From positions 1 to 64,000 of the forward strand of contig CBDDUX010000014.1 in NCBI GenBank assembly GCA_965234725.1: a DNA stretch of 64,000 nt, given 5' to 3'. This document shows, piece after piece, positions 48,731-54,342 of the stretch. Below the pieces are notes generated by a model that had not been told where the DNA came from, searched no databases, and saw only the letters and a program-made list of their open reading frames with translations. Within the stretch, counting starts at the first letter, position 1; every line of letters begins with the position of its first letter. Position numbers and translations under genes: made by a program. Source of the DNA: Thermoplasmatota archaeon. Lineage in GTDB: Archaea > Thermoplasmatota > Penumbrarchaeia > Penumbrarchaeales > Penumbrarchaeaceae.

Positions 48731-51217
48731 GTGGGGTTGAAGGATCATGGACTCACGGCCCAGGAAGGGATATTGCTTCACCTGCTTGACTTCAACAGGT
48801 ACAGAGATGATGATATCCTCCCGGAATCCGTTACTCAGCCAGGGATAGCAAGAATTCTGGATACCAAAAGGAGCTACATCTCATTTGTCCTTTCACAGAT
48901 GCTGAAGAGAAAAATGATAACTTTCAAACTCAGCAGGGTCGAAGGAGGGAGGAGGAAAAAGAAGGTATATTTCCTTGATGATGAAGGACTATCAGCTTCC
49001 AGGGAGATAAGGACCCTTCTTTCCAGGGAGAATATTTCCTGCAGGAGGGGAGGAAAGGAGTTCCGTGGTGATCTTGAGGATGTCTCCAAAGCTACTGGAC
49101 TTTCCCTTGTTTCCCTTACAGTCATCACAGATCCGGAAAGAACGGTCGATATCGATCAATGGTTCACAGAGAGGACCTCGATCAATAATAGTTACAAGTC
49201 TCCCCAGGGTCCTCCCTTCTCAGAGAACTTCACTGGGAGGTTAGAGGAGATATCGGCTATCCACTCATGGATCAGAAGCAGGTCCGGTCTGGCACTGGTA
49301 AAAGGTATTGCGGGTACCGGGAAGACCTCACTGGTGGGTAAAGTTATTGCGAAATGTCAGCAACCAGATCTTTCGTTTCTCTATCTTACCGTGTGTCCTC
49401 CGGGAGATGGATCCACCTTGATCAATGATCTGGCTATCCGGATGGATCGGATCGGAAGGTCGTCATTATCAAATCTTCTGAAGGAAAAAGGTTCCATTAC
49501 CCTGTCTGAGCTTGAAAGTAACCTTGAGCAGGAATCATCAAGGTCACCATTTCTACTTATCTTGGATGATGTCCACAATCTCACTACGATCAATAAAGAA
49601 AGCCGGATACTGGACGTGCTCCTGAAGATCGCTGATGAAAATTTAAAGGTCCTTCTGATTTCCAGAGAATCCATAGATGTGGATCCCAGGTCCATTCTTG
49701 GACCTACACCCCCTGTTCATATTGAAGTGCGTGGTCTGGAAAAGAATGATGTGATGACCTTGTTCGAGAACGCGGGAATGGATTTCAGAGATAATCTTTT
49801 CGAGCTAACCGCCGGACATCCACTCTATGTCAATCTGCTGATCCATTACACCTGTAATGAAAGACCATTGGAAGCCCGCAGGAGTATCAGGGCTTTCATA
49901 AGGAAGGAGGTACTGGATTGCTTGAACAGGACAGAAAGGGATATGTTGGACATATTTTCCCTTCTACGTTCTCCGATTTCACGGGAGGATCTGTTCGACA
50001 TGGATGCAGGTGATCTTATGATATCCGAGGCAGGGTTCCAGAGCTTGATGGGAAACGGTATCTTGCAGGGGGATGAACGTGAATTGTCCGTACATCAGCT
50101 GATCGGAGAAATCCTTGTTGAGTTGATGCCACGGGCAAGGGGGATCCAGATCCAGAGGGTGATCTCGGAACATTATAGAGAGCTGATCGACCTCGAACAT
50201 GGAATGGACATGTCCGTACCTGAGAGGATCAATTTCCTAAGGGAATACATGCACCATCTATGGGCATGCGGATCCCTTGGTGAGAGATTATCCGCCCTTT
50301 CCGATCTTGGAGAGGAGATGATGAGCAGGTCCCAGACCGATGACCTTGAGAAGTATACAGAAGAGATCCTTGGAAGGATCGACCGTTCTAGTGAGATGGA
50401 TGCACTGGACCCATCCTTAATCACTCGTATCATGATCTTCAATGGGTGGTGTCTATCAGTAAAAGGTGATTGGGAGGGTGCTTTGAAGATATACAACAAA
50501 GCCCGTGAAAAAGCTGACAGGATAGGTGATAGAGATCTTGTGGGAAGATGCCTCAATGCAATAGGTACAATTTACCTAAGAAGAGGTGAACCGGAGAAAG
50601 CCCAAGACCTGATATCCTCTTCCATCGAGATGATGGAAGACAGGTGCAGCCTCTGCAAGGCAAGGTCCAATCTTGCCGTAGTTCATTGGATGATCGGAAA
50701 CCTTGACAATGCTCTGGAAGAGGTTGACAGGTCAATGGACCTCGCCATGTTCCTGGATGATGCCATGGGTGTATCCAGAGGTTTGATCAACAAAGGGATC
50801 ATACTTGCCCAGATGGATGATCTTGAAGGTTCAAGGTCAGCCTATGAGAGAGCTCTTGCAATATGTGAAAGGGAGGCTTTTTCCCATACTCTATCCATCG
50901 TACATGATAACCTGGGAGAAATCCATAGAGAAAATGGTGATAATGATAGATCCCAGATACATTTCCAAAAGAGCCTGGAACTTGCAAGGGGACTAGGGTT
51001 CAAATGGCAGATCGCAGAGGCAACCAGGAACCTTGCATCCCTTGAATCCGAAGGACCTGGAAGGATCGGCCTTTTCATGGATGCTATCGGGATATTCAGG
51101 GACCTTGGAGATCTTCAAGAAGTTGAAAGAACGGAAAAGATGATGAAAGGTATTCCCTCAGTGAAAAGAAAATCGGAAAAAGGGGGGAATGATATTGATA
51201 AGAATTTTCATCGATGA
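48731..51217 (+). CDS. wHTH, STAND-type P-loop NTPase and TPR repeat protein
   Basis: N-terminal wHTH (TQPGIA..RRKKKVYFL), FTGRLEE, Walker A GIAGTGKT, Walker B LLILDD, AGHPL, C-terminal TPRs. Confidence 0.88.
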   Translation: MGLKDHGLTAQEGILLHLLDFNRYRDDDILPESVTQPGIARILDTKRSYISFVLSQMLKRKMITFKLSRVEGGRRKKKVYFLDDEGLSASREIRTLLSRENISCRRGGKEFRGDLEDVSKATGLSLVSLTVITDPERTVDIDQWFTERTSINNSYKSPQGPPFSENFTGRLEEISAIHSWIRSRSGLALVKGIAGTGKTSLVGKVIAKCQQPDLSFLYLTVCPPGDGSTLINDLAIRMDRIGRSSLSNLLKEKGSITLSELESNLEQESSRSPFLLILDDVHNLTTINKESRILDVLLKIADENLKVLLISRESIDVDPRSILGPTPPVHIEVRGLEKNDVMTLFENAGMDFRDNLFELTAGHPLYVNLLIHYTCNERPLEARRSIRAFIRKEVLDCLNRTERDMLDIFSLLRSPISREDLFDMDAGDLMISEAGFQSLMGNGILQGDERELSVHQLIGEILVELMPRARGIQIQRVISEHYRELIDLEHGMDMSVPERINFLREYMHHLWACGSLGERLSALSDLGEEMMSRSQTDDLEKYTEEILGRIDRSSEMDALDPSLITRIMIFNGWCLSVKGDWEGALKIYNKAREKADRIGDRDLVGRCLNAIGTIYLRRGEPEKAQDLISSSIEMMEDRCSLCKARSNLAVVHWMIGNLDNALEEVDRSMDLAMFLDDAMGVSRGLINKGIILAQMDDLEGSRSAYERALAICEREAFSHTLSIVHDNLGEIHRENGDNDRSQIHFQKSLELARGLGFKWQIAEATRNLASLESEGPGRIGLFMDAIGIFRDLGDLQEVERTEKMMKGIPSVKRKSEKGGNDIDKNFHR

Positions 51218-51235
51218 GAGGAGTAACTAGTGAAA

Positions 51236-51586
51236 ACAAAGATGGTGTGAGGGCTGTGACCTTAGAGTTGTACTAAAATCATCGGTAATCCAAACTCTAA
51301 GGTCAAGATGAAAAACGGTCAGAATCACCTATCATCATTTTTCATCGAGTGTTAACAATTTAGAGCACCATTTTTCGTATAGTTTTAAAATTGACGAGAG
51401 AAAAATGGTGCGAGGGCTGTGACCTTAGAGTTGTTGTTCAATTGACGATGATCCAAACTCTAAGGTTTAGACCAAAAACGGTTAACATTTTAGTATCATC
51501 ATTTTTGGTCGCAATTAATCATTTTCAAGCACCATTTTCTGTATCAATTTAAAATTGACGAGAGAAAAATGGTGCGAGGGCTGTGA
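51236..51586. repeat. Two tandem ~164-bp structured repeats, each beginning with a copy of the tRNA-Leu 3' end
   Basis: ATGGTG(C/T)GAGGGCTGTGA at 51242, 51405 and 51569 (the last is the tRNA itself). Conserved inverted repeats lie inside each unit. Confidence 0.9.
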
Positions 51587-51656
51587 TTTGAACACAGGAA
51601 CCACTAAGGACTAGACCCTCAATCTAGCGCCGTTGACCAAGCTGAGCTACCCTCGC
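51570..51656 (-). tRNA. tRNA-Leu(GAG) with encoded CCA
   Basis: GCGAGGG/CCCTCGC acceptor stem, CTAGA-TTGAGGG-TCTAG anticodon arm, long variable arm, CTGTG-TTCAAAT-CACAG T arm, ACCA end. Position after rpoD matches other archaea. Confidence 0.96.
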
Positions 51657-51891
51657 AATAGTTTGGTGGTCACGACTAGAGGCAGTCGGGGTTCAGGGCG
51701 GATGCATGTGATCGTGAAGTGACCGCCACAGCTTGGTCAACGGCCCGGGAACTTGTTCCCGGATATGACCAAGTTGGGCTACCGAAGGTGTCCATTCCGT
51801 GAACGCTTTGACCCGTGGTCAAAGAGTTCTGAGCTACCCTCGCAATTGTTTTTGGTGGTCACGACTTGAGGCAGTCGGGTTCGGGCGGATG
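51642..51891. repeat. Direct repeat (~63 bp, period 187) of the tRNA 5' end plus leader, enclosing inverted and decoy tRNA D-arm copies
   Basis: CTGAGCTACCCTCGCAAT..TTTGGTGGTCACGACT.GAGGCAGTCGGG at 51642-51704 and 51829-51891. Confidence 0.88.
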
Positions 51892-51943
51892 AAATTTGTC
51901 CGGAGGTAAGATACCTCCGGTCGGCAGAAAGTCCATTGAATAT

Positions 51944-52819
51944 TTAAGCTTCATCAAGTCCTGATATCTCCTCTCTCAGTTCCTCGTAGAAATCAGAGAG
52001 GTAATTCAGTGCATGATTGAGGGCATCCTTCGCAGTGATGGCGCCATCAGTTTCGAAATTGAATACGAATTTATTTTCCTCATGGGATAACTCAACGATC
52101 TTCTTCTCAGATCCATCGAGAGCATCCAGAATGGGGGATTCGTAATAGGACGGGTCCTTATCTTCAAGGGGTTTAAGGTCCTTGACAACTATCTTCCCCT
52201 TTTCGATCCCAAGGACCCCTTCTGGGAAGACCTTGATTATGGCCTCAACATCATCGATCCTCACATCGTTATTGATCACGAGCTTTGGGTAGTTCATGTA
52301 GCCACAGATGGTAACCGGCTGCCATTTCGTATGGGTCTTTCCTCTTCCCATGACCGCTGTTGCATAGATCAGCAGGGCCTGTTTCTCCTTGAGTTTGACA
52401 ATAGGGATGAGTTCCTCTTTGATCCTCAGGCTCATATCGCCAAGGGGTTGAAGGTCCCCGGAGTAAACTGTACACGGTCCTTTCTTGTTCATCACATAGA
52501 TGATGGTGCAGTGAGGGCAGCCAGAGCCACCACATTCACATTTGTCCCTGAAGGTATAATTTTCAAGATCGGTAGGAATGGGGACCATGCTTAGCCTGTG
52601 GGCGATCATCTCATCAAAAAGAGCAGAATTGGAATCATACTCGTTTCCTTCTTCATCTCTGATCGGTCCCATATGGAACTCCACTTCATCTATTGCCATT
52701 TTTGGGACCTCGGATACGAGAGTCCTCCTGATTGTATTGACCACATCAGGTCTCACCTGATCCACAACGAACGAGCATTTCGTATCGGTGAGTTCCCTTA
52801 CCTCAAGCTTCATCCTCAC
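51944..52819 (-). CDS. rpoD: DNA-directed RNA polymerase subunit D (Rpo3)
   Basis: NTIRRTLVSEVPKMAI, NSALFDEMIAHRLSMVPI, CECxxxxCxxC loop, IPIVKL, KWQP, FETDG. Confidence 0.96.
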   Translation of the reverse strand: MRMKLEVRELTDTKCSFVVDQVRPDVVNTIRRTLVSEVPKMAIDEVEFHMGPIRDEEGNEYDSNSALFDEMIAHRLSMVPIPTDLENYTFRDKCECGGSGCPHCTIIYVMNKKGPCTVYSGDLQPLGDMSLRIKEELIPIVKLKEKQALLIYATAVMGRGKTHTKWQPVTICGYMNYPKLVINNDVRIDDVEAIIKVFPEGVLGIEKGKIVVKDLKPLEDKDPSYYESPILDALDGSEKKIVELSHEENKFVFNFETDGAITAKDALNHALNYLSDFYEELREEISGLDEA

Positions 52820-52828
52820 ACCTCTGGT

Positions 52829-53215
52829 TCAGACCCTTCTTCCCCTCTTTCCACCCTTGGGTTTTGTCCCGTCGTGTGGAATTGGGGTAACATCCTCTAT
52901 CCTGCCGATCCTCAAACCTGCCCTTGATAGGGACCTTATAACTCCCTGGGCACCAGGTCCCGGTGAGGAGGGTCCATTCCCTCCCGGGGCTCGGACCTTT
53001 ATGTGGATATTGGTTATTCCCTTTTCCTTTGCCTTGTCGGCTATGACCTCTCCGGCCCTCATTGCTGCAAATGGTGATGCTTCGTCCTTCGCAGCCTTTA
53101 CGACCATGCCGCCAGTAGCCTTTGCAATAGTCTCTGCGCCGGTCAGGTCGGTCAGTGTGATCAGGATATTATTGTAGGAGGCATAGATATGACAGACTCC
53201 CCATTTCTCGGACAT
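52829..53215 (-). CDS. rps11: 30S ribosomal protein uS11
   Basis: [35 protein letters not shown]. Confidence 0.98.
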
Positions 53216-53826
53216 CAGTTCTCACCTCCTTCGGATGAAGGTGCCTCGATGCTGATCTTCTCGGGGACCTGTGAAACGCCTTCTATTCCCTCGGACTGGA
53301 TGGATGATTTTGGTCTCATGGGGTGTTCCTCGAATGCAAATGGCGAGGATTCATCATAATTTAATGTCCTCTCATCGAATTTGGGAACCAGCATTCCAGG
53401 AATTGTCGCTCTTCTGTCCTTCAGAATGATATGACCATGTGATATCAACTGTCTTGCCTGTTTTGGAGTCGATGCCAAGCCCTTTGTGTATACAAGGGTT
53501 TGAAGTCTCCTTGAAAGAACGGTCTCGATCTCTATTGCAAGGACATCCTGCAGGGGAGCACCCTCGTTGAGTATGCCCAATTTGTAACATCTTTTCAGGA
53601 GAAGATCGGCTTCCTTGATGGATTGTTTATTTTCGGTCCTTATATGAGCCTGCAATGTCCTGGCCTGGCCTCTCAGGTCCCTTAGATAGGACTGTGCCTT
53701 CCAGACCTCTTTCTTGTTCTTTAGACCGAACTTGATCATCAGTTCCTTCTCCTCCTTGATCCTCTCTCCCTGCCAGGGGTGTGAAGGTGTATCATATCTT
53801 TTCCTTAATTTCCTTGGATCTCCCAT
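53215..53826 (-). CDS. rps4: 30S ribosomal protein uS4
   Basis: [35 protein letters not shown]. Confidence 0.98.
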
Positions 53827-53838
53827 CTTAACACCTCC

Positions 53839-54342
53839 TTACTTCATCGCTTTCTTCCTGGACACGCCGACGGTAGCTCCGGTCCTTCCGTTGGATCTGG
53901 ACCTCTGTCCCCTGACCTTCTGGCCAGTTTCATGCCTAATTCCGCGATAGCTCCTTATCTTCCTCAGAAGGTTGATATCTTCCTTCTCAGCCATGGAAAG
54001 TTCCGAAGCTATGGCATGTGTGTCCTCACCTGTTTCCAGGTCCCTCTGTCTGTTGAGAAGCCAGGGCGGGAGAAGAGTAGGAATATCATCTATGAGCTCT
54101 ACCAGTTTCTTTACCTCATCATCGGTGAGGTCTCCCATGAGATTGTCCTTGGGGACACCAAGCTCCTTGGTCAGGATGTGTGAGATCCTGTAATTGATAC
54201 CTGTAATGGAGGTGATGCCATCAATGATCTTCTTCTCTCCGTTAATATCGGTACCTGCCATACGAACAATGAACTTGAAATCAGGACCATGCTCTTTGTC
54301 CTGATCCTTGTTCTGACCTTTGCCTTTTTTCTTTTCGGCCAA
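53839..54342 (-). CDS. rps13: 30S ribosomal protein uS13
   Basis: FIVRMAGTDING, PWLLNRQRD, SYRGIRH..GQKVRGQRSRSNGR. TTG start after a GGAGG RBS. Confidence 0.98.
   Translation of the reverse strand: MAEKKKGKGQNKDQDKEHGPDFKFIVRMAGTDINGEKKIIDGITSITGINYRISHILTKELGVPKDNLMGDLTDDEVKKLVELIDDIPTLLPPWLLNRQRDLETGEDTHAIASELSMAEKEDINLLRKIRSYRGIRHETGQKVRGQRSRSNGRTGATVGVSRKKAMK

Follow-up and report, generated by a model that had tools for sequence, protein, structure and literature searches.

Gene-less hairpin units stacked behind tRNA genes in a family of Thermoplasmatota archaea

Behind a tRNA-Leu(GAG) gene, in the 64,000-nucleotide stretch of DNA from an uncultured marine-sediment archaeon that was analysed here (the window), we found a tandem array of short units that carry no gene, and the feature is real and conserved. 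The stacking of mobile elements at tRNA genes is already known; the novelty lies in a unit of such stacks that is conserved, gene-less and defined by hairpins, has long been kept at the same tRNA and forms a hairpin over the tRNA end. The units were undescribed in the literature searched, which comprised titles and abstract openings, with subscription journals outside its coverage. As the best explanation we tentatively propose that they are long-lived, non-autonomous integrative mini-cassettes, with the single-strand fold as the selected feature; the main rival is a small-RNA gene in each unit. Should the fold be a recombination signal, it would point to a structure-reading recombination system in archaea; should it be an RNA, it would represent a new abundant RNA family at tRNA 3' ends, outside the Rfam release searched and matched by the model at 3 to 23 places per genome. 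Either way, the arrays break assemblies of such genomes and are mistakable for tRNA fragments.

The tRNA-Leu(GAG) locus

ARAGORN places the tRNA-Leu(GAG) gene, which encodes its CCA, at 51570-51656 on the minus strand, and Tandem Repeats Finder reports a tandem array at 51238-51586 with a period of 164, 2.1 copies, 79% matches and a score of 428. The tandem units of about 164 nt that a sequence-only reading of this DNA had placed at the tRNA-Leu 3' end are thus borne out by both programs. Unit A (51238..51401, plus strand) is distal and holds the older position; it is 164 nt long, free of ORFs, and matched at 51252-51357 with 103.1 bits by R1, our covariance model of the unit core. Unit B (51402..51565, plus strand) is proximal to the tRNA, again spans 164 nt in the Tandem Repeats Finder report, and is matched by R1 at 51415-51521 with 104 bits; the two units are 76% identical. 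A DNA contig of a related strain tracks the window to 51237 and then departs, exactly at the outer edge of the array. The array has a STAND NTPase gene and rpoD as neighbours. The NTPase is an 828-aa protein with TPR repeats, whose gene (48731-51217) is read on the plus strand towards the array and ends 20 nt short of it.

Copies of the last 17 nt of the tRNA, all on the minus strand, border the units. The copy at 51570-51586 belongs to the tRNA-Leu itself, the one at 51406-51422 is exact, and the displaced one at 51243-51259 has a single C>T change and is followed by the ancestral trailer GAAAACAAAGA, with a distal flank that is the same at the orthologous locus in three related genomes. Each unit begins with the tRNA 3' end and is closed by an inverted copy of it, as had been noticed before; we add that the inverted copies (51365-51376 and 51529-51539) pair best with the right-hand copy, across a loop of 23-25 nt. 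The trailer and T-run of tRNA-Leu come from unit B, and the CA of the tRNA-adjacent unit completes the CCA.

Three kinds of hairpin can be drawn on the plus strand of each unit. Hairpin 1 (51258-51304 in unit A, 51421-51467 in unit B) was correctly recognised from the letters and has a 12-bp stem, with a loop of 23 nt and not the roughly 20 nt first given; in unit B this loop contains AATTGACGAT at 51440-51449. Hairpin 2 spans 51307-51346 in unit A, with the stem GATGAAAAA ... TTTTTCATC, and 51470-51510 in unit B, where GACCAAAAA ... TTTTTGGTC is compensatory to it, just as claimed. Fourteen copies of the unit A hairpin 2 were found in this genome by nhmmer, and an 18-nt variable stretch follows hairpin 2 on its 3' side in both units, again in agreement with the first description. 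The terminal hairpin of unit A (51365..51411) is a 12-bp inverted repeat with arms at 51365-51376 and 51400-51411 and a loop of 23 nt, in which TTTTAAAA (51383-51390) is followed by TTGACGA (51391-51397); its second arm takes in the outer 6 nt of the next tRNA-end copy. That of unit B (51529..51575) has arms at 51529-51539 and 51565-51575 and TTGACGA in its loop at 51555-51561, and its second arm extends into the functional tRNA-Leu 3' end. Loop 1 of unit A is indeed complementary over 9 nt to loop 2 of unit B, a match to which the sequence-only reading had drawn attention; it is the only case in 129 loop pairs, and it is probably due to chance, since shuffled loops give 0.15 such matches per 129 pairs.

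Three metatranscriptome runs and one DNA run were compared with 50600-52400. The RNA contigs were confined to the tRNA and roughly 30 nt to either side of it, and to portions of rpoD and of the upstream ORF; one of them, from run X10, covers the tRNA-Leu region at 51541-51686. No RNA contig lay over the units; these are assembled contigs only and are uninformative on transcription. No TATA-like box is present within 30 nt of tRNA-Leu(GAG). The 5' side of the tRNA is duplicated too (51640-51885): its first 14 nt and about 50 nt of leader recur 182 nt upstream, with a D-arm-like tRNA fragment between the two copies. A weak match to the C/D-box RNA sR46 inside the rpoD frame (52589-52660, minus strand; 22.4 bits, E 0.047, below the gathering score) is probably a chance match.

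Fold, covariation and strand

The R1 model was built from 12 seeds and has 24 pairs. Standard pairs were found in 96.0% of cells in the 66 matches aligned to it (65 distinct), in an alignment that was fitted to the covariance model and therefore leans towards it. Both sides change in 22 of the 24 pairs among the 65 distinct family members, none of 500 shuffles matched the observed pairing values, and slid registers reached at most 54.9% paired. On the plus strand, which is antisense to the tRNA, there are 80 G-U against 9 A-C combinations, and 30 against 8 when the two least certain pairs (the tRNA-junction pair and one doubtful inner pair) are left out. This excess of G-U over A-C indicates that folding takes place on the antisense strand, be it RNA or single-stranded DNA. 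Selection on the unit structure, with the plus strand as the folding strand, is thus supported, as had been proposed together with the G-U compatibility of the stem deviations on that strand. The z-scores against shuffles are -3.5 and -6.4 for the two strands; both fold better, as inverted repeats generally would.

Hairpins 1 and 2 together with a third one make up the conserved fold of the antisense strand, and two of the three carry ATTGACGA in a loop of about 23 nt. The AATTGACGA that had been pointed out in loop 1 of unit B is confirmed and is one instance of this more general, conserved loop motif; in the loop of hairpin 1, ACG is present in 49 of 65 units, with the consensus ATTGACGAT. 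A TTGACGA-like motif lies 3' of hairpin 2, directly before the 3' arm of the third hairpin, in 42 of 60 units, and 37 of these 42 have an A/T-rich box before it (at least 7 of the 9 preceding bases being A or T). This TATA-like box keeps a constant distance to the tRNA-end copy. Among 39 distinct copies of the third hairpin, 418 of 468 cells are Watson-Crick pairs; its stems are of many kinds and its loops 21-25 nt long. In the class of 155-164 nt (Leu, Gly, Ser) its 3' arm is made up of the trailer and the 6 outermost nt of the tRNA-end copy that comes next; in the class of about 208 nt (Ala, Glu, Arg) it is internal, and a further terminal hairpin pairs the trailer and the outer tRNA end. 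A terminal inverted repeat of at least 8 bp was found in 41 of the 57 units with enough flank, mostly of 12 bp with a loop of 23-25 nt. Its sequence tracks the tRNA, and its strand bias is weak (15 G-U against 8 A-C).

Two adjacent units at tRNA-Glu(CTC) (contig 5:2561-2992) have 3 differences over about 170 nt, and the stem and loop of hairpin 1 are entirely different between them; hairpin 1 looks exchangeable there. A C/D-box identity of hairpin 2 was rejected, as the conserved D box is absent. No Rfam family fits the units: cmscan at E up to 1 over 49000-54000, RF00391 included, returned nothing in them, and the same search at 8 other array loci found true tRNAs and chance matches only.

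Some of these features would also be expected of a small-RNA gene, the main rival, which we regard as possible yet rather unlikely. It would have its promoter in the terminal-hairpin loop and produce a structured RNA of about 120 nt made up of hairpins 1 and 2, bearing an antisense (plus-strand) or sense (minus-strand) copy of the tRNA 3' end; its partner would be a protein bound to the ATTGACGA loops, and its target could be, for instance, the cognate tRNA or the precursor of that tRNA. The covariation and the G-U bias indicate one folded strand, units are retained at the same tRNA across genera, and the constant position of the TATA-like box relative to the tRNA-end copy is more in keeping with a gene than with a mere site of recombination. 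The A/T box before the TTGACGA-like motif is similar to the box of TTTTAAAA type that lies some 40 nt upstream of tRNA genes in this genome, the tRNA-sense strand reads TCGTCAA directly upstream of the box, in the place of a BRE, and the tRNA-end copies are followed by T-runs. However, the minus strand is favoured by the BRE-like arrangement and the plus strand by the G-U bias. Runs of T5 occur within hairpin 2 on both strands, and archaeal polymerase, as is generally known, tends to halt at such runs, which counts against a transcript through this hairpin. A unit-length RNA would miss one arm of the terminal hairpin even though this hairpin covaries, an RNA role alone leaves the flanking copies of each local tRNA end unexplained, and Rfam holds no matching family.

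Arrays behind tRNA genes and their distribution

Extra downstream copies of their own 3' end were found at 16 of the 46 tRNA genes of this genome (40 from ARAGORN and 6 intron-bearing). The query was the last 15 nt of each gene, and an extra copy was counted if it had at least 13 matched bases downstream on the same contig. For the Ala, Ser(AGA), Val, Ile, Lys and Arg(CCG) ends, further copies are present on other contigs. The copies are spaced from 92 nt to 3.7 kb, and the repeated core of 14-15 nt comprises the discriminator, the 3' strands of the acceptor and the T-stem, and 1-2 more bases; it is equally short at CCA-encoding tRNAs (one tRNA-Arg junction here and one junction in the relative G004). 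The direct copies that flank each unit repeat the final 14-17 nt of the tRNA at that locus. The tRNA gene stays intact through the copy that is fused to its body, and older units, together with the original tRNA end and its original trailer, are displaced outward.

BLAST and nhmmer find the unit on many contigs of this genome. The small units are 150-215 nt long and gene-less, and they share the array layout with gene cassettes, integrase-bearing elements and casposons. The array at tRNA-Ala(GGC) (contig 28:5460-14413), for example, starts with a 215-nt unit and continues with single-ORF segments and a 92-nt remnant. Two of these segments, of about 3.5 kb, encode surface proteins of about 1,070 aa each (a peptidase C1/lectin protein and an FG-GAP protein), and one of 1.4 kb encodes a methyltransferase; each cassette has the 14-15-nt tRNA-Ala end on both sides and a GGTTTAGAAC motif some 15 nt in from its left end. 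An AbiEii/AbiEi toxin-antitoxin pair sits between two copies of the tRNA-Ser(AGA) end. The terminal hairpin is absent from the large gene cassettes, so small and large cassettes may have separate mechanisms. Decayed tRNA-end copies are also present in the arrays, and a casposase pseudogene fragment lies within a tRNA-Ala array. A second unit type of this genome has a T-arm-like motif on the plus strand: at tRNA-Arg(GCG) (contig 20:24846-25432) it forms five (4 full) near-identical tandem units of 143 nt, with the T-arm-like GGTTCGAATCC on the strand opposite the tRNA. Modules that are 85% identical and consist of a tRNA-Thr, a 173-aa ORF and a 310-aa integrase were observed on contigs 102 and 44, one behind tRNA-Thr(CGT) and the other behind tRNA-Thr(GGT).

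R1 matches 16 places in this genome and all 23 other genomes of the family that were searched, with 3 to 23 places in each and seven genera represented; outside the family, none of 17 genomes was matched, except for one weak match (E 2.4e-4). The prospect that no other copies exist, which had been named as a way to overturn the sequence-only reading, is dispelled by hundreds of copies across the family, with about 270 matches to the R1 model, and the searches that it suggested, for hairpin cores at other tRNAs and with a covariance model, were both positive. In relatives, ARAGORN found a tRNA beside the unit at 17 of 27 loci, on the opposite strand in every case (Ala-TGC, Ala-CGC, Leu-TAA, Leu-GAG, Glu-TTC, Gly-TCC, Ser-TGA, Ser-GCT and Arg-GCG); the remaining 10 are contig ends or possibly intron-bearing tRNAs. 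Taking this genome and its relatives together, at least 13 tRNA species host the unit family. The exact hairpin-2 pattern was found only in records titled Thermoplasmatales or Thermoplasmatota archaeon MAGs, and the DNA runs that share most of the window's words are marine-sediment metagenomes. A relaxed hairpin-2 pattern gave 2 stretches in IMG/VR (model scores of 21.2 and 15.8 bits), neither of them tRNA-adjacent, and they pointed to no parent virus.

Locus comparison between genomes, which the earlier reading had also called for, shows local change in copy number. At the orthologous tRNA-Leu(GAG) locus there are three units and a remnant in G004, one unit in G003, and one unit plus one more distal in G001, with the same ancestral distal flank and a differing order of two unit subtypes. 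All 22 cross-genome nearest-neighbour rows at 80% identity or more link units at the same tRNA (18 were flagged by script, and 4 are two reciprocal pairs of tRNA-Leu(GAG) loci with one decayed copy), and no recent move between tRNAs is seen among them; units at different tRNAs have a distant likeness only. As close cross-genome relatives are always at the same tRNA, the units appear to be old residents with local turnover and not recent jumpers.

Candidate enzymes are present in this genome, none of the recombinase types tested being common to the family. A 407-aa solo Cas1 adjoins tRNA-Leu(CAG) and matches PDB chain 6opm_A over its full length (E 1.3e-117); the code 6opm appears in excerpts of an eLife paper on the structure of the M. 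mazei casposase. The element on contig 59:6-2456 is likely a casposon, as its solo Cas1 resembles that casposase and its conserved end motif abuts tRNA-Leu(CAG); a second copy of the casposon end was seen on contig 55:230-290, beside a tRNA-end fragment and an integrase-like gene. The end motif is confined to contigs 59 and 55, apart from two weak inverted matches, and none occurs at the units. A likeness between the casposon right end and the unit right end was dropped once the motif had been mapped. Of 15 family genomes searched for the casposase type, 5 gave matches, and part of these matches are fragments or CRISPR Cas1.

On contig 68, a 411-aa tyrosine-integrase-like gene lies 66 nt from a 14-nt copy of the tRNA-Lys end. 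It has four paralogs, two of them beside tRNA ends, and the five members of this divergent family (contigs 68, 55, 66, 56 and 97) are about 410-445 aa long and 38-42% identical; the Pfam Phage_integrase search caught only one of them. PF00589 has 7 matches in this genome, none beside the window's array. In the family, three tyrosine-integrase types were found in 2, 0 and 3 of 23 genomes, and tblastn with four tyrosine integrases and the casposase found none within 1.5 kb of units in the relatives' loci examined. Among other enzymes, PF01797 (Y1 HUH transposase) and Rep_OBD have no match in this genome, which is 97.65% complete; PF01548 has a single match over the cut-off, an IS110-type gene on contig 42 that is not adjacent to units, and the TnpB/Cas12f domain gave only weak zinc-ribbon matches and no clear TnpB. 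The only clear serine recombinase (resolvase) gene of the genome lies on contig 62:27551-27988, about 360 nt behind tRNA-Cys(GCA).

Possible origins and known systems

The reading of the units as integrative mini-cassettes draws on the copies of the tRNA end around them, their occurrence at many tRNAs, and the arrays that they share with gene cassettes, integrase elements and casposons; on the same grounds, a non-autonomous tRNA-targeting element is the best fit among the options that had been listed for this array. The units would have entered by site-specific insertion at the tRNA end, like integrative elements, with an enzyme presumably supplied in trans. Their hairpins may serve as recognition and recombination signals in single-stranded form, like integron attC, and recombination between the repeated tRNA ends could change the copy number of units. 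Several findings speak against this reading: none of the recombinase types tested is family-wide or lies near the units in the relatives' loci examined, casposons use another register, the units have no casposon-like terminal inverted repeats, and no recent move of units between tRNAs is observed. No circular or excised form of a unit was seen in the material, which consists of assembled contigs. An origin by tRNA-primed reverse transcription was rejected, because the tRNA-Glu and tRNA-Ala units repeat the genomic trailer and not CCA.

Like tyrosine-integrase elements, the units lie between direct copies of the 3' part of the target tRNA and leave the gene intact, and the contig-68 integrase of this genome uses the same kind of tRNA-end repeat; such elements differ in having the integrase gene inside, whereas the units at tRNA-Leu are 164 nt long and free of ORFs. 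Integrative elements are known to accumulate in tandem at tRNA genes, a pattern best described for the tycheposon islands of Prochlorococcus (bioRxiv 10.1101/2020.12.28.424599). Tycheposons and archaeal tyrosine-integrase elements resemble the present arrays in using many tRNA genes as landing sites and in combining cargo genes and degraded remnants, while the tRNA segment repeated by tycheposons is about 40 nt (bioRxiv 10.1101/2020.12.28.424599), compared with 14-17 nt here. Unlike tRNA-stacked elements of these kinds, our units are 150-215 nt long, have no gene, and keep covarying hairpins at the same tRNA across genera. Casposons of Methanosarcina mazei and Aciduliprofundum boonei insert in tandem at the tRNA 3' end, with duplication of 14-15 bp, according to excerpts of two articles (PMC4779613, PMC6977970), and the former also places casposons and integrase elements together at tRNA-Leu of M. 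mazei (PMC4779613). The tRNA 3' end is thus a site common to casposons and units, and a casposase lies beside tRNA-Leu(CAG) in this genome. The register differs: casposon ends here abut the last 4-5 nt of the tRNA and about 10 nt of trailer, and that part is duplicated as in M. mazei, so far as the excerpts describe it, while the units repeat the segment from the T-stem to the discriminator. The units also lack casposon-like terminal inverted repeats and a casposase gene.

Short gene-less elements and tRNA-linked repeats of other organisms are comparable in part. PATE and other IS200/IS605 miniatures are short and gene-less, with hairpins near both ends on the same strand that are read as single-stranded DNA. 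The units are likewise short and gene-less and carry hairpins; in contrast, this genome has no Y1 transposase and no clear TnpB, and the units are flanked by direct repeats of the tRNA end, while PATEs, to our knowledge, make no long flanking direct repeat. RtT (RF00391) refers to tandem repeats of about 170-180 nt behind E. coli tyrT, each with the last nucleotides of the tRNA. The analogy with these repeats, drawn by the sequence-only reading, holds for the layout of tandem repeats behind a tRNA gene that contain its 3' end, but it does not extend to the family itself: there was no hit for the Rfam model at E up to 1 in the array loci searched, organism, fold and motifs are unlike, and RtT is tied to one tRNA while the units here occur at 13 or more.

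The cassette of an integron ends in an imperfect inverted repeat, attC, of variable sequence and kept fold, of which one strand folds. An extension of the mini-cassette idea, which we consider unlikely, is that tRNA genes are integron-like capture platforms. An enzyme would read hairpins of one strand, namely those with ATTGACGA loops and a terminal one in which the tRNA end is restored in duplex form, and stack cassettes behind at least 16 tRNA genes per genome, with the gene-less unit as the minimal self-sufficient cassette. Arrays beside a fixed site and a unit-terminal inverted repeat with a kept fold and varying sequence are common to both systems, and the strand bias is clear for hairpins 1 and 2 and weak for the terminal hairpin. 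The differences are that no integron integrase lies beside the unit arrays, that the fixed site here is a tRNA 3' end with at least 16 such sites per genome, and that the small units are gene-less while the large gene cassettes are without the terminal hairpin.

The units could also be cis-acting parts of the tRNA locus (a terminator, insulator or processing signal) that supply the trailer, stop converging transcription and multiply only by unequal crossing-over, which seems improbable. The tRNA-adjacent unit does give its tRNA the CA and the T-run, the plus-strand NTPase ORF of the window ends just ahead of the array, the units are locus-bound, and near-identical tandem copies exist (three at tRNA-Leu of G004 and the five 143-nt units at tRNA-Arg on contig 20). 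However, we know of no requirement for hairpins in archaeal termination, and this general knowledge tells against such a role; the spread of one unit family to many tRNAs, each with its local end and a matching terminal hairpin, and the conserved loop motifs are left unexplained by it.

Far less probable is that the units are genes for guide RNAs of the bridge-RNA or omega-RNA kind, which would direct a recombinase or nuclease, with hairpins 1 and 2 as the scaffold, the adjoining tRNA-end copy as the guide and the conserved T-loop as the adjacent motif. The scaffold does abut a flank-derived segment of 15-17 nt and then a T-run, and the T-loop precedes that segment in the intact tRNA gene but not in the unit copies. 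The bridge-RNA-like or guide array that had been among the first options nevertheless fails on several counts: the loops match their own tRNA end at control level, without excess (mean 3.7-4.2, against 3.6-4.0 for other tRNAs), the one IS110-type gene lies on another contig with none adjacent to the units, the Y1 transposase is absent from the genome search, TnpB/Cas12f has only its weak zinc-ribbon matches, and a version with the guide at the 3' end requires the minus strand, contrary to the G-U bias.

That the units are inert scars of past integrations, of which the decayed tRNA-end copies and the casposase pseudogene fragment are reminiscent, or an assembly artefact, is close to refuted by the pairing with compensatory changes across seven genera, by the presence of units in 24 separate assemblies, and by units at 90-99% identity in contigs of a DNA run from another study.
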